Origin: Alphaproteobacteria bacterium
GTDB taxonomy: Bacteria > Pseudomonadota > Alphaproteobacteria > UBA828
Length of the DNA stretch: 64,000 nucleotides
Assembly (NCBI GenBank): GCA_963667785.2
Contig: CAXXMU010000006.1
Coordinates: forward strand, 864,001 to 928,000
Reading direction: 5' to 3'
Positions 8,806 through 19,936 of the stretch are shown here, piece by piece (position 1 is the first letter of the stretch; each line of letters starts with the position of its first letter). A model generated the notes under the pieces. That model saw only the letters and a program-made list of their open reading frames with translations. It did no database searches and was not told the DNA's origin. Made by a program: the position numbers and the translations under genes.

Positions 8806-10110
8806 ATGCAGACGCACTTCTCCGAGAGCCAGCTCGCGCATCCCGCGCTGGCCCAGGCCAACGAGGTGCTCCGCACCTGCGTCCACTGCGGGCTCTGTCT
8901 CTCCACCTGCCCGACCTACACGATACTCGGCGACGAGCGCGACAGTCCGCGCGGGCGCATCTATCTCATCAAGGACATGCTGGAGGCCGACGCGCCGGCG
9001 GACGCCACGGTCACCCGTCACATCGACCGTTGCCTCTCGTGCCTCTCGTGCATGACCACCTGCCCGGCAGGCGTGGACTACATGCATCTGGTCGACCACG
9101 CCCGTGGCCATATCGAACGGACTTGGACGCGCACACCCGCCGAACGGGCGCTTCGCACGGCTCTGAGCATCGTGCTGCCCCGTCCGGGCCTTGCGCGGCT
9201 CGCGCTGCTTGCCGCCCGGGGGCCGGCGCTGCTGGCGCCGCTCTTCGGCGGGCGCCTCGGCGCCCTGCTCCGCCTCGCCGGCCGCCCCTCGTACGGGCCG
9301 AGCTGGGTCGAGCGCCCGCAGGTGATCCCTGCCAGGGGCGCGCGGCGTGCGCGGGTCGCGCTGCTGACGGGCTGCATCCAGAGCGTGCTGAAGCCGGAGA
9401 TCAACGAGGCGGCAGCGCGCCTGCTCGCCCGCCAGGGCTGCGAGGTGGTGATCGTGCGTGGCGCCGGCTGCTGCGGCGCGCTCTCCCACCATCTGGGAGA
9501 CGACGTGCGCGGCCGGGCCCAGGCAGGGCGCACGGCGGCCGCGCTGGCGCGGGAGGCCTCCGCGCGAGGGCTCGACGCCGTCGTCGCCACCGCATCGGGC
9601 TGCGGGACGATGCTCAAGGACTACGGCCACCTGTTCCGGGACGACGAGGCCCGTGCCGCCGACGCGGCAGCGGTCGCCGGCCTCGCCCGCGACATCAGCG
9701 AGGTGCTCGACGGGCTCGGGCTGGCCGGCGCAGGGCCGCCGCCCACCACCGCGCCCGTCGCCTATCACTCGGCCTGCTCGCTGCAGCACGGCCAGCGGAT
9801 CGAGCGGCAGCCGATGGCGCTGCTGGAGGCCGCCGGCTTCACCGTGCGCACGATTCCCGACGGGCATCTCTGCTGCGGATCGGCCGGCACCTATAATATG
9901 ATGCAGCCGGACTTGGCCGGCACGCTGGGCGCACGCAAGGCGGCGGCGATCGAAGGCACCGGGGCGGCCCTTGTGGCCGCAGGCAATATCGGCTGCATGG
10001 TGCAGATCGCGAGCCACACCGCGTTGCCCGTGGTGCACACGGCCGAACTCCTCGACTGGGCAACCGGTGGACCCCGCCCACCGGCGCTCCAACGGCTCGC
10101 CGCCGGATGA
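8806..10110 (+). CDS. glcF: Glycolate oxidase iron-sulfur subunit GlcF
   Basis: CVHCGLCLSTCP, CLSCLSCMTTCP and two CCG domains. Confidence 0.94.
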   Translation: MQTHFSESQLAHPALAQANEVLRTCVHCGLCLSTCPTYTILGDERDSPRGRIYLIKDMLEADAPADATVTRHIDRCLSCLSCMTTCPAGVDYMHLVDHARGHIERTWTRTPAERALRTALSIVLPRPGLARLALLAARGPALLAPLFGGRLGALLRLAGRPSYGPSWVERPQVIPARGARRARVALLTGCIQSVLKPEINEAAARLLARQGCEVVIVRGAGCCGALSHHLGDDVRGRAQAGRTAAALAREASARGLDAVVATASGCGTMLKDYGHLFRDDEARAADAAAVAGLARDISEVLDGLGLAGAGPPPTTAPVAYHSACSLQHGQRIERQPMALLEAAGFTVRTIPDGHLCCGSAGTYNMMQPDLAGTLGARKAAAIEGTGAALVAAGNIGCMVQIASHTALPVVHTAELLDWATGGPRPPALQRLAAG

Positions 10111-10192
10111 CTCGGGCCGGTGACGGCGAGCGCGAACAGGCACACCGCCGATGCGGCACGCGTGCGCATCGCCCGGTGCCGGATAGGTCGCC

Positions 10193-10531
10193 ATGGACCT
10201 GACGATGGAACGGGAGGACGGCGTGCTGACGGTGCGCGTCGAAGGACGTATCGACGGCTCCACCGTCCTGTCGTTCCAGGAGACCGTCGAATCCGCGATC
10301 AAGGGCGGCGATCGCGCGGTGATCGTGGACTGCGAGGCGTTGAGCTATATCGGCAGTGCGGGGCTTCGCACCGTGCTCGGGCTCGCCAAGACCGTCTCCA
10401 ACCGCAATGTGCGATTTGCGCTCTGCTGCCTCTCGGGTCAGGTCCTGGAGATCTTCGAGAAGAGCGGCTTCGACACGATCATCGCGATCCATCCCTCGCG
10501 GGAGGTCGCGCTCGACTCCGTCGACGGCTGA
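10193..10531 (+). CDS. STAS-domain anti-sigma factor antagonist (RsbV/SpoIIAA-like)
   Basis: 112 aa; VEGRID, L.YIGSAGLR with the phospho-acceptor Ser, EIFEKSGF. Confidence 0.9.
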   Translation: MDLTMEREDGVLTVRVEGRIDGSTVLSFQETVESAIKGGDRAVIVDCEALSYIGSAGLRTVLGLAKTVSNRNVRFALCCLSGQVLEIFEKSGFDTIIAIHPSREVALDSVDG

Positions 10532-10564
10532 CGGGCACGAAGCCGACGCCACGCATGACGCGAC

Positions 10565-11509
10565 TCAGTCGCGAATCTCCTTCCGCGCCGCGGCGGTAAG
10601 CGCCTGCCCGGCATCCGCCGTGGCCTCGGCCAGCAGCTCGATCCAGAGTTGGCCGTGGGCGGCGACGCGGTGGGTGAGGCCGATCCGCCGCGAGGGCTCG
10701 GGCGCATCGAGACGAGCGAAGCTCAGGCCGGGAGCGGCCGCATACTCGCAGAGCGCGGCCGTCTCTGGAACGAGAGTCAGGCCCTCGCCGCTGGCGATCA
10801 GCCGCGACAGCGTGGCGAGCGAGCTCGCGCCGCGGCGAACTTCCTGCATGCGCCACATGCGGCAGGCGCCCAGCACCTGGTCCGCCAGGCAATGGCCGTC
10901 GGCAAGGGTGAGCAGCGGCCCGATGTCGGCGCGCGCGAGGTCCTCCGGTCTCAGCGCATCGCCGACCGCGCGGCGGATCGAGGCGACGCGTTCGGCGCGG
11001 CCGGCGAGCAGAAAGCGGTCCTCGAACAGCTCTCGCTCCGGCAGCTCCAGCTTGCCCAGCGGGAGCGACACGATTGCCGCGTCGAGGCGGCCGGCGAGAA
11101 GGCGCGAGACGAGCTCCTGACCCGGCGCCTCCAGGATGTCGAGCTCGATGCGGGGCGTCGAAACGCCGACCCGCTCCAGGATTCCCGGCAGAATGTAGGG
11201 CGCGAGCGTGGAGAGGATCCCGACCCCGACCTTGAGCGGACCCGCCTCCAGGCGCTGCTCCATGTTCTCGAGGAGCAGCGTCTCGTCCAGGACGCGCAGC
11301 GTCTGCTCGTGCGCATCCCGGCCGAGCGGGGTGAGGAGGATGCCCCGGCTCTCGCGCTCGACCAGCGGCCCGCCGAGAGTGGCTTCGAGTTCGCGGATCT
11401 GGAGCGAAAGTGCCGGCTGAGAGACGTGCACGCTCTCGGCCGCCCGGCTGAAGGAGCCGTGCTCTACAAGCGCCTGGAAGTAACGCAGCTGTCGCAGGGT
11501 GACAGGCAT
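10565..11509 (-). CDS. LysR regulator, OxyR-like
   Basis: LRQLRYF...VSQPALS HTH; GHCLADQVLGAC carries the OxyR C-x8-C redox pair. Confidence 0.85.
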   Translation of the reverse strand: MPVTLRQLRYFQALVEHGSFSRAAESVHVSQPALSLQIRELEATLGGPLVERESRGILLTPLGRDAHEQTLRVLDETLLLENMEQRLEAGPLKVGVGILSTLAPYILPGILERVGVSTPRIELDILEAPGQELVSRLLAGRLDAAIVSLPLGKLELPERELFEDRFLLAGRAERVASIRRAVGDALRPEDLARADIGPLLTLADGHCLADQVLGACRMWRMQEVRRGASSLATLSRLIASGEGLTLVPETAALCEYAAAPGLSFARLDAPEPSRRIGLTHRVAAHGQLWIELLAEATADAGQALTAAARKEIRD

Positions 11510-11793
11510 GTTCCATCCTTCGCGGCACGACTGCGGCGGCGTGGGAGACCGGGGCGGGCGAGCGGCCCTCCCGATCGGCAGGACGGTCGGCCAGGTCGCG
11601 GGCCGAGGCCCCGGGTCTCTCGTGCAACCGCTCGGTCCCGGCGGCCCCCGCAGCGCGGGAGGTCATCCTGCCCGGGCGGGGCCGACGCGGCCGCTGCTGC
11701 GGGACACCTGGGGCGTGCCGTCGGGCGCGTGAGCCGTGTGTCGTGTGTGGGTCGGTGCCGCCGGCAGGAAGCGCTGCCGGCGAGCGATGACTG

Positions 11794-11943
11794 CTACGCT
11801 CCTCCGGGGCTCCCTGGAGAGCCGGGTGGGTCTGGTATGGGGATGGTTGGGCGCCACCCGCTGCAGACGGCGGCGAGCCCTTCTTCCGCGGTGTCTCGCG
11901 GTTCGGAGTCCGTGCTCCTGTATCGCGTACCTGTTTCGCTCAT
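11794..11943 (-). CDS. Putative 49-aa peptide
   Basis: MSETGTRYRSTDSEPRDTAEEGLAAVCSGWRPTIPIPDPPGSPGSPGGA*; GGGGAGG RBS 5 nt before the ATG. Confidence 0.4.
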   Translation of the reverse strand: MSETGTRYRSTDSEPRDTAEEGLAAVCSGWRPTIPIPDPPGSPGSPGGA

Positions 11944-12242
11944 CGTGGCCTCCCCTGGTGAACTCGGCCGTTGCTCGGCCGTGGACGCCCTGCCGACCGG
12001 TGGTGGCGGAGGGCGCCTTATGAAAAAGTCCGCGATGTTAGCGCTCGGGGTCTTTCGATCGACGCTGCCGCGCCGGCGGACATCAGTTTCACTTCGCAGA
12101 ATTTCTCCCTTGCGCTCATCGTCTCATGTGCCGGTTTTTTCGATACCCGCGACTTGCTCTGACCGTCAGTGCCGCAAAAAAGTTGCATGCCGGCTGCAAT
12201 CCGGTGGCGCTAGCTTATGCCGGAACGGGCAACCGATTACCA

Positions 12243-12279
12243 ATAGCGAATTAATGTGGTTTCCATAGTTTTCGCTTAT
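12243..12279. promoter_or_regulatory. OxyR-type operator candidate
   Basis: ATAG-N7-ATGT-N7-ATAG-N7-TTAT versus consensus ATAG-N7-CTAT-N7-ATAG-N7-CTAT, in an AT-rich patch. Confidence 0.45.
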
Positions 12280-12313
12280 TCCGCCGCCACCCCGGATGGC
12301 GGCACGCGCGCCG

Positions 12314-14299
12314 TCAGGCGGCGCTCGCCTCGCCCGCGCTGCCGTCATAGCGCAGCACGATGCAGGTGATGTCGTCCGACTGCTCCGCGTCGCCGACGAA
12401 GTTGACCACCGCACCGGTCACGTTCGCGATCACCGCATCGACCGGCAGGTCGTGGCCGTCGGCGAGAACGGTCTCCAGCCGCGCCTCGGTGAACTCCTCG
12501 TGATCGGTGTTCATGGCCTCGGTGATGCCGTCCGTGTAAAGGAACATCGTGTCTCCCGGAGCCAGCGTCACCGCGTCCTCGTCGTAAGGCAGTCCCGGCA
12601 TGACGCCGACGGCCATGCCTCCCGTCATCGGCAGCGCCGCGACCGCACCGGGATGGCGAACGATGTAAGGCGGGTTGTGCCCGGCATTGGCGTAGGTGAA
12701 CTCTCCGCTCGCGGGATTCAGGATGCCGTAGAAGAGGGTCACGAACAGGTCCTGCGGGTTCTGCGCGCAGATGGCGTCGTTGACCTCCTGGAGGCACGGG
12801 CCCGGCGTGGGGTGGCGGTTGGCGGCGGCACGCATGACGGTCCGCGCGATCGCCATGAAGAACGCGGCCGGCACCCCCTTGCCGGAGACGTCCGCCATCA
12901 CCACGCTCAGGCGTCCGTCGTCCAGGGGGAAGAAGTCGTAGAAATCGCCGCCCATTTCGCGCGCAGGCGTCATGATGGCGTGCCCCGAATATGAGGGACT
13001 TTCCGGCATCGTCTTGGGCAAGATTGCACCCTGAAGGGCGTGCGCGATCTTGAGCTCCGATTCCATACGCTCTTTCGCCTTCTCCAGCTGAGCGTTGGAG
13101 AGTTCCAGGTCGCGCGTGCGGGCGCGCACCATGCTTTCCAGGTATTCCTCGCGCGCCTGAACCTGGCGCACCATGTTCTGGAAAACGCGGACCAGCGTGC
13201 CCAGCTCGTCCCGTCGCTCGGCAACCTGGTCCAGGGATTCCGGGGCGAAGCTCAGCGTGTCGGTGTCCACTTCGGCGGCCGCCGTGGTCAGCGCGGTGAC
13301 GGGCTGCACGATGCGCCGCGCCGAGAACACCGCGATGATGGAGCCGATGGCGAAGGCGGCCGCGGCGACGATCAGACCGTACTTGATGTGGTCCGAGAAC
13401 AGCTGATCCAGGTGGTCGCGCTCCATATGGATGACCGCGGCGCCCGAGGCGACTCCGCCGCGATCGAGGATCGGCGCCGCCACATGGAGGGCCCGCTCGC
13501 CGAGATAGGAGAGCGCGCCGCCCGCAGCGAGAACGCGCGTGGCGAGGTCCGCGTCATCCAGCATGAGCGCCGCATCCGCCATCGGGATATCCTTGGCGTC
13601 GAAGGCGGCGACGCCGATCGTGTCGAGCGAGTCGTTGACCACCCAGATCGACTGAATTGCCTCTCTCCCGGCCAGGGAGTCGAGCGCCGCGTCGATGCCG
13701 ATGACCTCGCCGGCCCCGCCCATCTCGCTGGCGATCGTGCCGACCAGCACCGACTGGTGGTTGCCGGCGCGGACGCCGACGTACCGGATGGGTTTCTCCC
13801 AGCCCGCCGGCGGTATCGACTGGAAGGAAACCGAGAATCGCCGTCCGGAGACCAGCGCCTCCACCGATCGGTAGTCGATGCCGGCCGCGGCGAGGTCCAG
13901 GGCCTCGCCCTGGTCCAGGCCGGCGACGGCGCGCACCAGGGGTTCGCCCGCCCGATCCAGCAGCCAGATGTCGTCGGCAGCGCTGTCCGCGGTGACGCGC
14001 GCAAAGTAGGCCCCGAGCTCGCCCGTGTCCTGCTCCGCGTCATCGTGGCTGTCGAGATGACGGGCGATCGCCAGCGCCTGCGCTTCCATCTGGCTGGTGA
14101 TCATGCGGTCGATCTCGTCGGTGGTGAGCTCGGCCCGGTTGGCCTCGCTCGCGATCAGCCCGGCCACGAGCTGTGCCTGGTCTTCCGCCTGCTCGATCAG
14201 CGCATCGCGCGCGAGATACCCCATCGCCAGCGCGACCCCGATGATCGCCACGCCGACCGACGCGGCGACCGTGATAATCAGTCGTGTGGAAAGGGTCAC
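12314..14299 (-). CDS. Membrane sensor PP2C/SpoIIE (RsbU-like) phosphatase with HAMP domain
   Basis: TM-periplasmic-TM-HAMP (RRDELGTL)-coiled coil; GGDFYD, ADVSGKG, NAGH, YTDGITEA, SDDIT. Start uncertain (GTG 14299 or 14320). Confidence 0.92.
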   Translation of the reverse strand: MTLSTRLIITVAASVGVAIIGVALAMGYLARDALIEQAEDQAQLVAGLIASEANRAELTTDEIDRMITSQMEAQALAIARHLDSHDDAEQDTGELGAYFARVTADSAADDIWLLDRAGEPLVRAVAGLDQGEALDLAAAGIDYRSVEALVSGRRFSVSFQSIPPAGWEKPIRYVGVRAGNHQSVLVGTIASEMGGAGEVIGIDAALDSLAGREAIQSIWVVNDSLDTIGVAAFDAKDIPMADAALMLDDADLATRVLAAGGALSYLGERALHVAAPILDRGGVASGAAVIHMERDHLDQLFSDHIKYGLIVAAAAFAIGSIIAVFSARRIVQPVTALTTAAAEVDTDTLSFAPESLDQVAERRDELGTLVRVFQNMVRQVQAREEYLESMVRARTRDLELSNAQLEKAKERMESELKIAHALQGAILPKTMPESPSYSGHAIMTPAREMGGDFYDFFPLDDGRLSVVMADVSGKGVPAAFFMAIARTVMRAAANRHPTPGPCLQEVNDAICAQNPQDLFVTLFYGILNPASGEFTYANAGHNPPYIVRHPGAVAALPMTGGMAVGVMPGLPYDEDAVTLAPGDTMFLYTDGITEAMNTDHEEFTEARLETVLADGHDLPVDAVIANVTGAVVNFVGDAEQSDDITCIVLRYDGSAGEASAA

Positions 14300-14351
14300 C
14301 GCAGGCCCGCGGTGGCGCACGACCGATGCCGACGCCGGAGGACCGGCGTCG

Positions 14352-15029
14352 TCATGGCAGCATGTCTCCCGGGCCGTCCGTGGTCTCCTGCATGGGCCGA
14401 TGCACGCGCCGTTTTATGTGCCTGCTCAGCCAATTCATGCCGAACGTGAGCAGCAGGCTGAATCCCAGGAACCAGATCATGGCCCACAGATAGACCCAGA
14501 GCGCGAGCCCGACCTTGTCGACGGCGCCGATGACCGTATCCGCGCGCCGCACGAGTTCGGGCACACCGATCACCGACGCGGTGCTGGAGGCCATGACGAT
14601 GATCAGGAAGTAGCTCGTCCAGGCCGGCACGAACAGCAGCGCCTCGGCGATCTCGTGCCGGCGCAGGTGACGAATCGCGGCGAGCGCGTTGTCGGACACG
14701 TAGCCGGCGACGGCGATCCCCAGCGCGAGCGACGCCTTGATCCAGGCCGGGAAGGTCAGGGCGGCGCCGAAGAGCTCGAACTCGGTGGGGATGATGTAGG
14801 CGAGATAGAACAGCATGACGAAGGTCGGCGCATTGCGCGCCAGCGTCGTCAACGCCCCGCCACCGTGCCGCGCTCCCCAATTCGTGCCGCTCCGCAGCAG
14901 GGCCAGGATCATCCCGACGATGGTGCCGATGGCCATGGCGAGGAGGGAGACGATGATGTTCCAGCCGAACCCCTCCGCCAGATAGGGCGACCAGGCCCAC
15001 AGGACGTCGATGGTCTCCTGCGCTGTCAT
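14352..15029 (-). CDS. Polar amino-acid ABC-type permease (HisM/GlnP family), EAA loop absent
   Basis: YLAEGFGWNI, RNAPTFVMLFY, ASSTASVIGVPEL; ATGA overlap with the upstream gene. Confidence 0.85.
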   Translation of the reverse strand: MTAQETIDVLWAWSPYLAEGFGWNIIVSLLAMAIGTIVGMILALLRSGTNWGARHGGGALTTLARNAPTFVMLFYLAYIIPTEFELFGAALTFPAWIKASLALGIAVAGYVSDNALAAIRHLRRHEIAEALLFVPAWTSYFLIIVMASSTASVIGVPELVRRADTVIGAVDKVGLALWVYLWAMIWFLGFSLLLTFGMNWLSRHIKRRVHRPMQETTDGPGDMLP

Positions 15030-16627
15030 GCCGTCGTGGCCCTGCCCCTCTCGAACCGCCGGAAGAGCTGCACCGTGATGATGACCAGGACGAAGTAGCA
15101 GATCAGAAGCAGATTCATCATCACGTCCGCATTGCCCTTTTCGGCCACGATCGAGGTGCTGGCGTGCACCAGTTCGGGCAGGGCGAGGGTGCTGGCCATG
15201 CCGGTGGCCTTCACGATATTGGCCGAATTCCCCATCACCGCGGCGTAGCAGAGCATCAGCGCCCGTTGAATGTCGCGCGGCGTGAAGCGGAGCCGGTGGC
15301 TGCCTCCGGCGGCGACGTCCGCCGCGAGCGAGAACGCGATGGCGTTGCTCGACGCCGCGTAGAGCGAGAGCACCACGGCGGAGACCAGGAAGGCATCGAG
15401 CGTGAAGCCCAGCGCCAGCAGCACGCCGCCCAGGCCGAAGAACACGATGTAGAGCTGGAGCAGCGGGGGCGTCATGCGCATGAACTCGCTGAAGCCCCGC
15501 AGGAAGTGGCTGATCCCCGGCACCCGCCGGTGCATCAGCCAGCCGAAGAGAATGCCCAGCACGATGCTGCCGACGACGGTGATCACCGAAAGCAGCGCCG
15601 TCAGGCCCAGGCCGTAGAGGAAGACGTCTCTGTCGAGCGGGTCGTAGAGGATGCTGATGTCGAGACCCGTCACCTCCATGATCGTGAGCGAGAAGCCCGA
15701 GAGGCCGCCGATGCCGCTGCCGGTGACGAGAGCGACCTCGCGGCACTCGAGCGGCCACATGCCCTGCTCGTCGCGCCGGCACGTCAGCTCGCCGGCTTCG
15801 TCCGTCTCCTGCCACGTCGTGCGGGCATCGCGCAGGAAGGGAGAGGGCGGCAGGCCCCACTTCTTCTCAAGCGATTGCAGGAAGCCATCGCGATGCCAGC
15901 CGGCAAGCGTATCGCCGAGCACCAGATCCAGTGGGGCGCCGCCTTCCTCCTTGGCGATGGCGACGGCCCAGGGCAGGACGAAACGCGTCGGCAGGGTGAC
16001 GCTGAAGCCGTCCCACTCCCCGCTCTCGAGCTCGTGCAGGAGGAGGACTTCGTCGTAGATCCAGCCGAGGCAATGCCCGTTGCGCAGCGCCTGGCCGGCC
16101 TCGCGGGTGCTGTTGAACGCGGTCACGTCGAGCAGCAGCCGCTGCTTGGCGAGCCGGTTCCAGAGCGAGCCCTGGAGCCCGCACACCGTCTGACCGCGCA
16201 GGTCCGCCCAGCTGCCGATCTTGGCGTCGTCCCGCAGCAGCACGTTGGCGCCGTCGCCGTAATACTGCGGCTCGATCATGGTGACGAGCTCGCGGCGGCT
16301 GCGGGTATCGCCCATGGTGGCGGCGACGATGTCGATCTCGCCCCTCTGCACCTTCTGCAAGCGATTGGCGCTGGTCACCGGAACCAGCTCGACCTCGACG
16401 CCGATCGCCTCCGCGAATCCCCGCGCCACGTCCACGTCGTAGCCGACCAGCTCGCCCTCCTCGTCGCGAAACCCGAAGGGCGAGTAGTCTTCCTTGACGC
16501 CGACGATCACGTGGCCGCGGTCCCGGATTTCCTGCAGCCGGTCGGCGAGGGCGGGAGAGGCAACGCCTGCCCAACCGACGAGGAGTGCGGCGAACAGCAG
16601 GCGCAACGGCAGGCGGCGGCGGCTCAT
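15026..16627 (-). CDS. Fused family-3 substrate-binding domain + amino-acid ABC permease
   Basis: Signal peptide, GVKEDYSPFGF, GYDVDVA, VTSANR; C-terminal RMTPPLLQLYIVFFGL permease domain. Confidence 0.88.
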   Translation of the reverse strand: MSRRRLPLRLLFAALLVGWAGVASPALADRLQEIRDRGHVIVGVKEDYSPFGFRDEEGELVGYDVDVARGFAEAIGVEVELVPVTSANRLQKVQRGEIDIVAATMGDTRSRRELVTMIEPQYYGDGANVLLRDDAKIGSWADLRGQTVCGLQGSLWNRLAKQRLLLDVTAFNSTREAGQALRNGHCLGWIYDEVLLLHELESGEWDGFSVTLPTRFVLPWAVAIAKEEGGAPLDLVLGDTLAGWHRDGFLQSLEKKWGLPPSPFLRDARTTWQETDEAGELTCRRDEQGMWPLECREVALVTGSGIGGLSGFSLTIMEVTGLDISILYDPLDRDVFLYGLGLTALLSVITVVGSIVLGILFGWLMHRRVPGISHFLRGFSEFMRMTPPLLQLYIVFFGLGGVLLALGFTLDAFLVSAVVLSLYAASSNAIAFSLAADVAAGGSHRLRFTPRDIQRALMLCYAAVMGNSANIVKATGMASTLALPELVHASTSIVAEKGNADVMMNLLLICYFVLVIITVQLFRRFERGRATTA

Positions 16628-17081
16628 GCCGTCACCCGCGGTCCGGGGCCACAGGCCCCGCACATGCGATACGGATGGCGGGGGTGCCGTCGCCGGCAGC
16701 CGTCCATGGGGAAGAAAGACCGGGACGGGATTTCCGCATCACTCCGTTCGCACGACGGAGATATCGAGCGCAGGGGCCCGGCACGGGCGTGCGGCCATGG
16801 CGTTTCGGTCGTCGGTGAGCGTCGAGCGGGTCATCGTAGCGGTTCGGCCTGACGTAACCGATAGGAGGGACAGGTCCGGATAGGGCGCCGATGTCCGCGA
16901 CCGCGAAACGCGTCGGCCGCGTGCTTCTGTCTTATCAGATATAACGTTACGGAGAAATAGAGTATCGTGCCGCGCGAGAGAAACCAGTCCGAACCGTCGC
17001 CGCGCGGGCGCCGACACCTCGAAATGCAGATACGCGCTCGCCGCGGCCTTGGAAGATCGGCGGCGAGGCTCCGGGGGAAGA

Positions 17082-18029
17082 ATGACGGGCCGTGGTGATC
17101 GCTTGCCTTCGTTCGCGCTGCGCCGTCGGGTGCCGCTCCGCCGTGCGCTCGCTCTGCTCGCACTGCTCGCCCTCTCTGCGTCCGGCCTGCCACATCCGGC
17201 ACCACCGGCGGACGCCGCCGATGGCGGCGTGCTTGCCAGGGTCGAGGCGGACGGCGTGATCCGCGCCGGCACGAGGGCGAGCGCGCCGCCTTTCGCTCGG
17301 AAGCTGGAATCCGGCGGGTTCGAGGGCTTCTCGGTCGACCTGCTGGAGGAGATTCGCGTCTCGGTGGAGGAGAGGCTCGGCCGCTCCGTCGCGCTCGAGT
17401 TTGCGGAAGTAACCCCGTCCGACCGGCTGCAGCGCGTCGCCGCAGGCGAGCTCGACATCGTCTGCGGGATCACCACGCCGACCTGGGACAGGGAGACCCT
17501 CGTGGATTTCTCGGTGCCGTTCTTCCGCGACGGCACCCGCATCCTGATCTATCGGGAACGGGCCACCGGCGGCGTGGATCTCGGCAGGCTCGACATCGGC
17601 GTGGTCGAAGGGACGACCACCGTCACGATCATCGGCGACGAGCTGCCGACGGCCACTCTGCACCGGTTTCCCACCATGACCGACGCCATGGAGGCGCTCG
17701 CGAAGTCGGAGGTCCACGGTGTCGCCAACATCGGCATCACCCTGCTCGGGCTCGCGGCGCGGGAGGAGCCCCGCCGCAGCGTGGTCCTGCTTCCGCGCAC
17801 TTACGCGCTTGCCATGGAAACGCTGGCCTGCGTCCTTCCGCAGGACGACAGCGCGTGGCGGGACGTGGTCAATCGCGTCATCATCGATGCCTTCGCGGGC
17901 GTCGAGGATTCCAACAGCCGCTACGACGAGATCTACGAGCGCTGGTTCGGCCGCGACAGCGAGATCTTCTATCCGCTCGACCGCAGCAACCGCACCTATC
18001 TGAGCACCGTGTCGATCTGGGCGCGCTGA
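17082..18029 (+). CDS. Amino-acid ABC substrate-binding protein (family 3, GltI-like)
   Basis: GTRASAPPF, GFSVDL, DIVCGITT.T.DRE.VDFS.PFF, YERWFG; start uncertain. Confidence 0.87.
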   Translation: MTGRGDRLPSFALRRRVPLRRALALLALLALSASGLPHPAPPADAADGGVLARVEADGVIRAGTRASAPPFARKLESGGFEGFSVDLLEEIRVSVEERLGRSVALEFAEVTPSDRLQRVAAGELDIVCGITTPTWDRETLVDFSVPFFRDGTRILIYRERATGGVDLGRLDIGVVEGTTTVTIIGDELPTATLHRFPTMTDAMEALAKSEVHGVANIGITLLGLAAREEPRRSVVLLPRTYALAMETLACVLPQDDSAWRDVVNRVIIDAFAGVEDSNSRYDEIYERWFGRDSEIFYPLDRSNRTYLSTVSIWAR

Positions 18030-18104
18030 GGGCGCCTGCGCCCGCCCGGCTGCCGTGCGAGACGGCACACGGCCACGCGCCTCACCGCGGCGGCGGGGCA
18101 GGCT

Positions 18105-18119
18105 ATGCTATAGTGTCAC
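18105..18119. promoter_or_regulatory. Candidate Zur box overlapping a TATAGT -10 element
   Basis: ATGCTATAGTGTCAC resembles the proteobacterial Zur palindrome (ATGTTATA-N-TATAAC); lies directly upstream of zur. Confidence 0.5.
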
Positions 18120-18173
18120 CTTGCCAATCGCCGCGCGGCGCATACCGGCGCGGGCGGCACGGTCGAGGAACGG

Positions 18174-18680
18174 ATGGACCCCCAGCAGGCCACGAAGCCC
18201 GGCTTCCGTAGTGACGGGCACGAGCACGAGAGCTGCATCGAGGATGCGCTCGCCCGCGCCGATGCGCTCTGCCGCGGGCGCGGCGTTCGCCTCACGCCGC
18301 TGCGGCGACGGGTGCTGGAGCTGGTCTGGGGCAGTCATCGCGCGGTCAAGGCCTACGACCTGCTCGCGGCGCTCGGCGAGGGGGTCGGCGCGGCAAAGCC
18401 GCCGACGGTCTACCGCGCGCTGGAGTTCCTGATGGGCCAGGGCCTGGTCCATCGCATCGACAGCCTCAACGCCTTCGTCGGCTGTCCCGCGCCCGACCGG
18501 AGCCACAGCGCCCAGTTTCTCATTTGCGGAAGCTGCGGCGAGGTCTCGGAGCTGAACGCGCCCAGTATCGACCGGGCGGTGGCGCGGCAAGCCGCCGATT
18601 CGGGCTTCGCGGTCTCGCGCCAGGTCATCGAGTTGCACGGAAAATGTCCGCGTTGCACAGCGCCGCCGCCGAGCCCGTGA
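18174..18680 (+). CDS. zur: Zinc uptake regulator (Fur family)
   Basis: RLTPLRRRV, KAYDLL, PPTVYRALEFL, HRIDSLNAFVGC, CxxC...CxxC; precedes znuC/B. Confidence 0.92.
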   Translation: MDPQQATKPGFRSDGHEHESCIEDALARADALCRGRGVRLTPLRRRVLELVWGSHRAVKAYDLLAALGEGVGAAKPPTVYRALEFLMGQGLVHRIDSLNAFVGCPAPDRSHSAQFLICGSCGEVSELNAPSIDRAVARQAADSGFAVSRQVIELHGKCPRCTAPPPSP

Positions 18681-19936
18681 CCCGCCGCGCCGGCGCCGAC
18701 GGCGCGACGCTCGCCTCGGGCGAGGGCCTCGTCGTGCGCTACGGCGGGCGCACGGTGCTGGACCATGTCTCGCTCGAGGTCCGCCGGCGCGAGGTGGTGA
18801 GCCTGATCGGGCCGAACGGCGCCGGCAAGACCACCGCCGTGCGCGCGCTGCTGGGACTCATCAGGCCGGATGCGGGCACCGTCCGTCACGAGCCGGGCCT
18901 GGTGGTGGGCTACGTCCCCCAACGCATTGCGCCGGATACGCTCCTGCCGATCTCCGTGCGGCGCTTCCTGGCGATGGCGGGTCGCAGCACCGCGGCGGAC
19001 GCCGCCGCGACCCTCGACGAGGTGGGTATGGCGGCGGTGATCGACCGCCAGCTCAGCGCCCTGTCCGGCGGCGAGTACAGGCGGGTCTTGCTCGCCCGCG
19101 CCCTGCTGCGCGATCCCGACCTCCTGGTGCTGGACGAGCCGGTCCAGCAGGTAGACTTCCCCGGCCAGCTCGGCTGCTTCATGGTCTGGCGGCGCATGGC
19201 CTACTTCGGAGACTCCGTCGCCCACAGCGCGCTGCTCGGCGTGGTGCTCGGCATCGTCCTCGGCATCGAGCCCAACGCCGGCATCATCATCATGTGCATC
19301 GCCCTCGCCCTGCTGCTCCACCTGCTGCAGCAGCAGCGGCGCCTGGCCACGGATACCCTGCTCGGAATCCTGGCGCACGGGGCGCTGGCCCTCGGACTCG
19401 TCGGCATCAGCTTCCTCGAGGGCGTGCGGGTCGACCTGATGAGCTATCTGTTCGGCGACATCCTCGCCGTCACCGGCCGCGACCTGCTGTGGATCTGGGG
19501 CGGCGGTGGCGCCGTGCTGGTGGCGACGGCGCTGATCTGGCGGCCGCTGCTCGCCATCACGGTCCACGAGGAGCTGGCGCGCGCCGAGGGCGTGCGGGTC
19601 GGCCTCGTGCGCCTTGTCTTCACGCTTCTGATCGCGCTCGCGGTCGCGATCGCCATGAAGATCATCGGCCTGATCCTGATCGTGGCGCTCCTGATCATCC
19701 CGGCGGCGACGGCCCGCAGACTCGCGCGCTCGCCCGAGCAGATGGCGCTGCTCGCGAGCCTGATCGGGGCGGCGGCGGTGGCGGGTGGGCTGCATGCCTC
19801 GCTCGCCTGGGACACGCCGTCCGGCCCCTCGATCGTGGTCGCGGCGCTGGCTCTCTTCACGCTCGGTCTGGGCGGCGCCGCGCTGGCCTCGGCGTGTCTC
19901 GGGCGGGTCGTTGATTCGGCGCGGGCCGAGCCCTAG
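18677..19936 (+). CDS. In-frame ZnuC'-'ZnuB fusion (truncated ATPase + N-truncated permease); probably defective
   Basis: GPNGAGKT, LSGGE and LVLDEP, then directly LGCFMVWRRMAYFGDS.AHSALLG (ZnuB); no H-loop. Confidence 0.85.
   Translation: MTRRAGADGATLASGEGLVVRYGGRTVLDHVSLEVRRREVVSLIGPNGAGKTTAVRALLGLIRPDAGTVRHEPGLVVGYVPQRIAPDTLLPISVRRFLAMAGRSTAADAAATLDEVGMAAVIDRQLSALSGGEYRRVLLARALLRDPDLLVLDEPVQQVDFPGQLGCFMVWRRMAYFGDSVAHSALLGVVLGIVLGIEPNAGIIIMCIALALLLHLLQQQRRLATDTLLGILAHGALALGLVGISFLEGVRVDLMSYLFGDILAVTGRDLLWIWGGGGAVLVATALIWRPLLAITVHEELARAEGVRVGLVRLVFTLLIALAVAIAMKIIGLILIVALLIIPAATARRLARSPEQMALLASLIGAAAVAGGLHASLAWDTPSGPSIVVAALALFTLGLGGAALASACLGRVVDSARAEP

Follow-up and report, generated by a model that had tools for sequence, protein, structure and literature searches.

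Organization of the locus

We analyzed a locus in a 64,000-nucleotide stretch of an alphaproteobacterial genome (assembly GCA_963667785.2, contig CAXXMU010000006.1, forward-strand positions 864,001 to 928,000; hereafter the window, whose numbering is used for coordinates without a prefix). Here two membrane subunits of an amino-acid-type ABC importer, one of them fused to a solute-binding domain, are encoded next to a membrane-bound PP2C-type phosphatase and are not accompanied by a GlnQ-type ATPase. The source genome has 4.09 Mb, the G+C content of the region is about 64-75%, and the nearest relatives of the window are alphaproteobacterial/Rhodospirillales metagenome-assembled genomes. The locus contains the following genes, where SBP stands for solute-binding protein and TMD for transmembrane domain:

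15026..16627, minus strand: SBP-TMD fusion (FUS), 533 amino acids, with a signal/anchor segment, a family-3 solute-binding domain (SBD), a Cys-containing linker and an ABC type I importer TMD
14352..15029, minus strand: TMD2, a second ABC importer TMD, 225 amino acids
12314..14320, minus strand: membrane phosphatase with a first transmembrane helix (TM1), a dCache-like periplasmic domain, a second transmembrane helix (TM2), HAMP, a coiled coil and PP2C (SpoIIE)
17049..18029, plus strand: SBP2, a free family-3 SBP, divergent from the operon; start codon uncertain
10193..10531, plus strand: STAS-domain protein of the anti-sigma-factor-antagonist type, the presumed PP2C substrate
10565..11509: LysR/OxyR-like gene, between the STAS gene and the phosphatase gene

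This layout, with FUS, TMD2 and the phosphatase co-directional, SBP2 divergent and the STAS gene at its given position, had been proposed by an earlier sequence-only reading, and open reading frame (ORF) and Pfam calls confirmed all of it. Gene starts were inferred from homologs. The TMD2 ORF overlaps the FUS stop by 4 bp. Candidate starts of the phosphatase are GTG codons at 14320 and 14299, which would give 668 or 661 amino acids; the latter is the likely true start and agrees with homologs of 661 amino acids. The distance of 52 nt between TMD2 and the phosphatase that had been reported holds for this second GTG, and with the first GTG it is 31 nt. The earlier reading had missed the dCache domain of the phosphatase, the RsbW-like kinase found in relatives, a conserved S-adenosylmethionine (SAM) methyltransferase and the part of the first EAA helix that persists in TMD2.

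Membrane subunits and solute-binding proteins

By fold and family, the two membrane subunits are polar-amino-acid ABC importer (HEQRo/PAAT) proteins. NCBIfam TIGR01726, a signature of the N-terminal three transmembrane helices, matched TMD2 with 43.7 bits (cut-off 42.2) and residues 347-438 of FUS with 40.3 bits, just below this cut-off, and the NCBIfam GlnP model matched TMD2 over residues 8-206. A scan of the whole genome with TIGR01726 gave 4 matches, which were a canonical permease pair and the FUS/TMD2 pair. Structure models were built with AlphaFold2 (AF2) and cover TMD2 and residues 1-335 of the phosphatase. The TMD2 model (102-row alignment; predicted local distance difference test score, pLDDT, 81.3) had as its best Foldseek match in PDB the permease ArtQ (4yms_D, E 1.7e-6, template modeling (TM) scores 0.71/0.74), followed by MetI, DppB/C and OppB/C. 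Pfam BPD_transp_1 was not detected in FUS or TMD2 even at an E value of 10, and in precomputed Pfam annotation it was present in none of the 120 homologs listed. The transmembrane motifs RMTPPLLQ and KATGMAS..PEL were conserved in the family.

The SBD of FUS matched Pfam SBP_bac_3 at residues 52-270 (1.7e-26), and its best solved relatives were AncQR (4zv1, 4.5e-23) and GlnP (6h30). SBP2 matched the same Pfam family (1.1e-20), with AncQR 4zv1 again the best structural match; its nearest NCBIfam model was that of the orphan SBP GrrP (TIGR04262), at 125.5 bits and below the cut-off of 190. Judged by these matches, the FUS SBD and SBP2 both appear to resemble amino-acid-binding proteins. An Arg that is invariant in the FUS family aligns with the Arg that, in canonical members, presumably binds the ligand carboxylate.

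Truncated and degenerate EAA loops

The EAA loop (EAA-x3-G-x9-I-x-LP) of type I importers is the site at which the ATPase docks. The corresponding segments of the two subunits are:

14625..14669, minus strand: truncated EAA loop of TMD2, residues about 121-135
15230..15334, minus strand: degenerate cytoplasmic loop of the FUS TMD, at the site expected for the EAA loop

We compared TMD2 with the AapQ/AapM-like permeases of the same genome and with 12 EAA-intact permeases of a sister clade (see below) using MAFFT. The TMD2 family was found to have a contiguous deletion of 18-20 residues, which corresponds to the G-x9-I-x-LP half of the loop and is present in both subfamilies. An hhalign comparison of the family with the AapM-like permease placed the residues beyond the loop out of register, and these alignments were used in its place. 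Part of the first half of the loop persists in TMD2 (RRHEIAEAL in the window; 'rrg...eal' at 60% family conservation) and formed a one-turn helix (127-130) in the model, between helices 95-123 and 133-154. F133, P135 and W137 of TMD2 were conserved in at least 90% of 102 sequences. The loop of the FUS TMD kept most of its length, being about 10 residues shorter in an alignment with canonical and sister permeases, and the EAA-x3-G-x9-I-x-LP motif was absent from it in the same alignment. This stretch was among the least conserved in a 44-row family alignment and was 6 residues shorter in some members.

Both permeases had been described as lacking the EAA loop while keeping the permease motifs that flank it. 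The flanking motifs are indeed intact. The first part of the description is right in substance, given the deletion in TMD2 and the missing motif in FUS, but too strong in its wording, as TMD2 retains the remnant of the first half and FUS most of the loop length.

Absence of a partner ATPase

Relatives of the window were collected from 51 GTDB species, with a single locus taken from each and flanking sequence of at most 10 kb included; these 51 loci were retrieved with peptide patterns from the window's TMD2 and are therefore biased toward its relatives. In tblastn searches with GlnQ-type and ZnuC-type queries, the 3 kb on either side of TMD2 were free of ABC ATPase matches in all 51. A broader search used 18 diverse nucleotide-binding domain (NBD) queries (E<=1e-3, distances measured from the cluster ends) and found no NBD anywhere in 30 of the 51 loci and none within 1 kb of the cluster in all 51; an NBD occurred within 2 kb in one locus and within 3 kb in ten. 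Nine of these ten cases are accounted for by a ZnuC-like ATPase found in the window's lineage; in the window itself it is part of a zur-znuC-znuB set that begins 85 bp past SBP2. The NBD within 2 kb, found in L035, was considered as a partner ATPase and rejected; it belongs to an Fbp-like system that is complete, with an SBP and a BPD_transp_1 permease of its own. The claims that no GlnQ-type ATPase is present in the locus and that EAA-truncated relatives do not sit beside an ATPase were thus both borne out, the nearby zur-znuC-znuB set being of another ABC class.

The window's own genome contained 149 ABC_tran matches and a single GlnQ-type ATPase, located in a canonical two-permease operon; the next-best ABC ATPase was 36% identical. 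Shared ATPases exist in other ABC families, and the trace of the first EAA helix that TMD2 retains would suit a conventional ABC importer powered by an ATPase borrowed from another locus. We consider this very unlikely, since TMD2 has lost the G-x9-I-x-LP half and the FUS TMD has no motif, the only GlnQ-type ATPase of the genome lies inside a complete canonical operon, and an ATPase was found within 1 kb in 0 of 51 clusters compared to 12 of 12 in the sister clade.

Sister clade, distribution and selection

A profile search of 1.84 billion representatives yielded 65 cluster representatives at E<=1e-30, among which were relatives about 20 residues longer with the EAA loop intact. The EAA-intact gene was held by 12 genomes of a 401-genome phylum sample. 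In all 12 loci of this sister clade, a GlnQ-type ATPase (47-55% identical to GlnQ of the window's genome) was located beside the permeases and the EAA loops were intact in both TMDs, and none of the loci (12-18 kb each) contained PP2C, RsbW, STAS or methyltransferase genes. In a quick maximum-likelihood tree of 55 rows (11 near-duplicates dropped; midpoint root only), the EAA-truncated clade (41 rows) was one side of a branch with a Shimodaira-Hasegawa-like approximate likelihood ratio test (SH-aLRT) support of 96, and the support of the sister clade was 97. The loss of the loop is best read as a single ancient event that has persisted since, with carriers that are not independent of one another.

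In a class sample, 23 of 401 genomes matched at E<=1e-35. The family is rare, because matches at E<=1e-96 without the 20-residue insertion were confined to the window's genome and 3 of the other 400. Cultured carriers include Zavarzinia aquatilis, Aquamicrobium zhengzhouense, Kaistia hirudinis and Oryzicola mucosus.

The ratio of nonsynonymous to synonymous substitution rates (dN/dS) was 0.09-0.15 for TMD2 (6 pairs with close relatives) and 0.08-0.15 for the FUS TMD (5 pairs; the sixth was skipped for unequal length), so both are under purifying selection. A decaying transporter remnant that lies by chance beside an unrelated phosphatase would agree with the lost motor and the missing BPD_transp_1 match. 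It is hardly credible in view of these dN/dS values, the 65 cluster representatives at E<=1e-30, and the conserved synteny and in-frame fusions that follow.

Conserved synteny and natural fusions

The occurrence of the main features among the 51 loci was as follows:

FUS directly upstream of TMD2: 51/51
PP2C directly downstream, same strand: 39/51, plus L004 (cut by the contig end) and L044 (convergent, adjoining)
STAS gene within 10 kb: 29/51
RsbW-like HATPase_c_2 kinase within 10 kb: 23/51
4-bp overlap of the TMD2 (or TMD2-RsbW) ORF with PP2C: 11/51
TMD2 in frame into PP2C, a single ORF of 854-855 amino acids with a linker of roughly 12 residues: 10/51
TMD2 fused to the RsbW-like kinase, 382-384 amino acids: 3/51

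The arrangement is not a chance one; it recurs in 51 loci. FUS and TMD2 overlapped by 4 bp in 35 of them. SBP2 was present in 40 loci, namely 39 of the 41 PP2C-linked loci and L043, and in none of the 9 loci without an adjacent PP2C or partner-switch genes. Conservation of the adjacency to PP2C, on which the earlier proposal depended, was therefore observed, and the in-frame fusions reinforce it.

An independent database search for longer TMD2 relatives returned 26 proteins. Most of these (22) were 853-855 amino acids long and contained SpoIIE, one was a truncated fusion, two were uninformative, and one consisted of TMD2 followed by STAS (243-343) and cNMP_binding (391-477) domains. Fusions of TMD2 thus involve each of the three components of a partner switch, and they occur in different lineages. 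The modeled phosphatase opens with an in-to-out transmembrane helix, and the modeled TMD2 ends in the cytoplasm if it has the N-out orientation that we take to be canonical; the predicted topology is consistent with the cytoplasmic C-terminus of TMD2 leading into the first transmembrane helix of the phosphatase. Taken together, there is good support for an importer scaffold that has lost its ATPase and docking loops, has been maintained by selection and makes up a single unit with a PP2C/RsbW/STAS switch.

Phosphatase, STAS protein and RsbW-like kinase

The phosphatase contained Pfam SpoIIE (PF07228) at residues 467-658 (1.5e-53, profile positions 1-191 of 192) and HAMP at residues 333-388 (24.8 bits, cut-off 25). 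The NCBIfam equivalog model of SiaA (NF038263) scored 110.8 bits against a cut-off of 700, with a match over residues 317-658 only (HAMP and PP2C). No Pfam Cache domain matched the N-terminus. In the AF2 model of residues 1-335 (pLDDT 82.7), a long helix and two PDC (PAS-like) modules lie between two transmembrane helices, and Foldseek gave 141 matches to it at E<=0.001 with modest TM scores of 0.3-0.5. Among the matches listed, most were dCache ligand-binding domains, including TlpQ (6fu4, 3e-7), Tlp3, PctA, KinD, DctB and LuxQ (3c30), and a language-model lead for the N-terminus agreed with dCache. On the strength of this model, the phosphatase is predicted to carry its own dCache periplasmic sensor domain.

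The STAS protein matched Pfam STAS (PF01740, 2e-23) and TIGR00377 (83 bits, cut-off 53.45), and the Ser in its YIGSAGL stretch is located at what we take to be the phospho-Ser position of RsbV-type proteins. A kinase gene in the 11.5-12.3 kb gap of the window was considered and rejected, as stops occur throughout all six frames. An ortholog of the cluster-linked RsbW-like (HATPase_c_2) kinases, 50-55% identical, is encoded elsewhere in the window's genome (C2:52813-53247). No switched target, such as a sigma factor, was found in the annotated loci.

These domains also bear on which part of the unit is the input. The TMD pair could instead be the regulated output, an ATP-independent, SBD-fed channel or facilitator whose cytoplasmic face is the 'partner' of the RsbW-like kinase or the STAS protein; the dCache-HAMP-PP2C protein would then be the sensor, perhaps together with SBP2 in a LuxP/LuxQ-like manner, and the switch would gate solute entry. 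Several observations speak for this alternative: PP2C has an independent dCache sensor, with LuxQ among its structural matches; SBP2 co-occurs with PP2C and not with the TMD pair; TMD2-RsbW-like fusions resemble fusions of a kinase with its target; the TMD2-STAS-cNMP_binding protein puts a cytoplasmic sensor on the TMD; and loci with a methyltransferase and no adjacent PP2C (see below) show that the pair works alone. A parallel is given by STAS domains attached to SLC26/SulP transporters, as described in the available portion of PMC8256260. On the other side, TMD2-PP2C fusions join the TMD to the input end of the phosphatase (TM1), the usual place of a sensor module. We know of no type I importer TMD pair that conducts solute without NBDs, and a precedent for such conduction was not found in our literature search. 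Overall, a role of the pair as output seems possible but doubtful.

Several additional genes of the partner-switch type were observed. One ORF of 259 amino acids adjoining the cluster in L044 (10958-11737) combines RsbW-like HATPase_c_2 and STAS domains. GPP34 (GOLPH3-like) genes directly follow STAS genes at two sites in the window's genome, about 0.9 kb from the second SpoIIE phosphatase of that genome, and are also close to STAS genes in several related loci (C2:868734-869730, C2:544192-545186 and C2:343785-344420 in the window's genome; L013:13734-14468; L018:1614-2396); they may be components or targets of partner switches. In L018 (2478-6440), a STAS gene is located between genes for an ammonium transporter and a type III glutamine synthetase, beside SBP2. 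STAS and GPP34 matches were found at corresponding positions in L019, L021 and L033. The gene order in L018 suggests a possible connection with nitrogen status in this lineage.

SAM methyltransferase and loci without an adjacent phosphatase

A gene for a class I SAM methyltransferase was present in 39 of the 51 loci (e.g., L018:7558-8397, L044:4801-5658), mostly directly upstream of FUS, and in L018 it overlapped the FUS start by 4 bp. It was not found in the window locus, its ten closest loci, L037 or L043. An ortholog in the window's genome (C1:1077898-1078683; L097:5842-6690), 52% identical, is located beside a family-3 SBP gene (L097:4511-5689). No specific family could be assigned to the methyltransferase, which matched generic class I models only, far below their cut-offs. 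Nine loci contained the methyltransferase, FUS and TMD2 with no adjacent PP2C, and these were basal in the midpoint-rooted tree; two of them (L041 and L046) had a distant PP2C match about 6.6 kb upstream. A 595-amino-acid protein downstream of TMD2 in L041 was examined as a PP2C-like sensor and rejected (hhalign probability 0.2, no family match).

The methyltransferase raises the possibility that the system still moves its substrate, which would be energized in another way or trapped, for example by cytoplasmic methylation, while PP2C monitors the transport cycle in the manner of BceS with BceAB. The presence of the gene in 39 of 51 loci, mostly directly upstream of FUS, the renewed proximity of the own-genome ortholog to a family-3 SBP and the conserved transmembrane motifs would all fit such a flux-sensing transporter. 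Against it, the window's lineage (10 loci and the window) has no methyltransferase in the locus and the remainder of the cluster is under purifying selection there, and the enzyme matches only generic models at scores far under their cut-offs. We regard this explanation as unlikely.

In three of the loci without an adjacent PP2C (L046:10672-13371, L048:11727-15602 and L051:10759-14420), the TMD pair was located beside contractile-injection or phage-tail-like genes, which encode VgrG/gp5-like, baseplate, Pvc16_N and sheath proteins.

Proposed function

The transporter was probably turned into part of a receptor. FUS and TMD2 would pair as the TMD heterodimer typical of such importers, with a binding domain tethered to it and the motor gone, and this heterodimer would sit against the dCache-HAMP-PP2C phosphatase. 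An amino-acid-like ligand may bind the tethered SBD, and probably also the free SBP2, and binding would alter the conformation of the TMDs. The change could pass laterally within the membrane to HAMP and thereby set the activity of PP2C, which would dephosphorylate the STAS protein; the RsbW-like kinase encoded elsewhere in the genome would rephosphorylate it, and the state of the STAS protein would drive the partner switch. We put the chance that ligand occupancy of the SBD (and SBP2) is relayed in this way, via TMD2 to HAMP-PP2C and then to STAS, at about even. Physical contact in the unfused form, the direction of signaling, the ligand and the output are all parts of this scheme that we infer. 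A transporter-derived receptor had been suggested by the sequence-only reading; our results support it, and none of the refutation tests run on sequence data went against it.

Several points weigh against a purely sensory role of the TMD pair. With its own predicted dCache sensor, the phosphatase would not need the pair as input. The TMD2-STAS-cNMP_binding fusion carries a cytoplasmic sensor, which fits the pair as a regulated part at least equally well. The methyltransferase is not explained by sensing, and the 9 loci without an adjacent PP2C indicate that the pair has some phosphatase-independent function. The conserved transmembrane motifs are compatible with retained solute passage, and the window locus itself has neither an RsbW-like kinase nor a methyltransferase. 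Because of the phosphatase dCache domain, the methyltransferase loci lacking an adjacent PP2C, the methyltransferase itself and the TMD2-STAS-cNMP_binding fusion, two of the alternatives, the regulated output and the flux-sensing transporter, retain some probability.

Elements of both could also be combined. The TMD heterodimer might itself be the switched partner, with the RsbW-type kinase and the STAS protein competing at the former ATPase-docking face and so gating an ATP-independent, SBD-fed conduit, and with the methyltransferase trapping or marking the molecules that enter. We consider this improbable; if true, the scaffold of an ABC-type importer would be controlled and energized in a new way, and partner switches would have a target of a new kind.

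Relationship to known systems

ABC importers are defined by their ATPase. The system described here lacks two defining features of a working ABC importer, the intact EAA loop and the ATPase, and its phosphatase is not SiaA by score. With Art(QN)2 of Thermoanaerobacter (4YMS) and the AapQMP-like operon of the same genome it shares the TMD fold, the TIGR01726 region, amino-acid-type SBPs and motifs of the R..P and K.TS...(I/L)..EL types; it differs from them in the absence of an ATPase gene, of the EAA motif and of a Pfam BPD_transp_1 match. GlnP combines fused SBDs with a homodimeric TMD and works with GlnQ ATPases. Both GlnPQ of Lactococcus lactis and our system have an SBD fused N-terminally to the permease, and PDB entries 6h30 and 4kpt were among the matches of the FUS SBD; here, in contrast, the TMDs form a heterodimer, an ATPase is absent and a phosphatase follows.

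With RsbU/V/W and with SiaABC(D) of Pseudomonas aeruginosa, as far as the available portions of the literature describe the latter, our system shares HAMP and PP2C, a STAS-type substrate and, in relatives of the window, the RsbW-like HATPase_c_2 kinase. Unlike in these systems, the sensor part here consists of dCache and an ABC-derived TMD pair, the SiaA score is far below its cut-off, and no diguanylate cyclase or sigma factor was seen adjoining the genes. The double-PAS/dCache-like periplasmic domain and the co-occurring free SBP2 recall LuxP-LuxQ. The output here is PP2C, however, and not a histidine kinase, an additional SBD-TMD pair is present, and contact between SBP2 and dCache is hypothetical.

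BceAB keeps its ATPase and signals through the activity of this enzyme. In the system described here the ATPase is gone and the coupling would be to a phosphatase, a kinase or a STAS protein. In both cases ABC transporter membrane parts are tied to signaling, and for BceAB-BceS the available portion of PMC11109136 describes a physical coupling to the signaling protein. The same source describes ECF S-component/5TMR 'transceptors', in which a transporter membrane fold was recruited to signaling, with fusions to SpoIIE-type phosphatase. Its available portion calls the S-component case the first prokaryotic transceptor and has no mention of BPD_transp or EAA. Compared with that account, our system is based on a type I importer TMD heterodimer with an SBD, which is a different fold. 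No account of a type I importer TMD that lacks an ATPase and is linked to PP2C, STAS or RsbW came up in a literature search of open sources, which worked mostly at the level of abstracts and covered neither supplements nor subscription journals.

A conserved motor-less clade of this kind would clearly illustrate the reuse of a type I importer scaffold in signaling, its membrane pair and binding domain having been joined repeatedly to the phosphatase, kinase and STAS components of a partner switch. It would offer a concrete, testable system for how bacterial transporters become receptors, and partner switches outside Firmicutes, whose inputs and outputs are poorly known, would gain an input or a target in the membrane. 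The natural single-chain TMD2-PP2C fusions would suit structural work.

Surrounding sequence

Rfam models gave nothing at E<=0.1 across 10000-18300, and a separate scan for promoters and terminators gave no signal exceeding shuffle expectation. The roughly 800 bp (11510-12313) that separate the LysR-like gene from the 3' end of the phosphatase gene contain no ORF in any frame, and the G+C minimum of the profile (0.64) falls in the bin 12000-12999, which overlaps this segment. DNA runs that contained at least half of the sampled words were three in number, two labeled as sponge metagenome and one with a coded organism name, and RNA runs were absent from the matches listed; the best of the DNA runs may come from the window's own source sample and are thus not independent evidence of habitat. 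On the other side of the cluster (18114-19936, plus strand), a FUR-family (Zur-like) gene is followed by Znu-type ABC_tran and ABC-3 permease domains in one open frame of 573 codons. Approximately 6 residues separate the ABC_tran and ABC-3 Pfam matches in this frame, and the ATPase may be short at its C-terminus or fused to the permease. The Zur-Znu arrangement is kept in the close relatives of the window (L004-L012).

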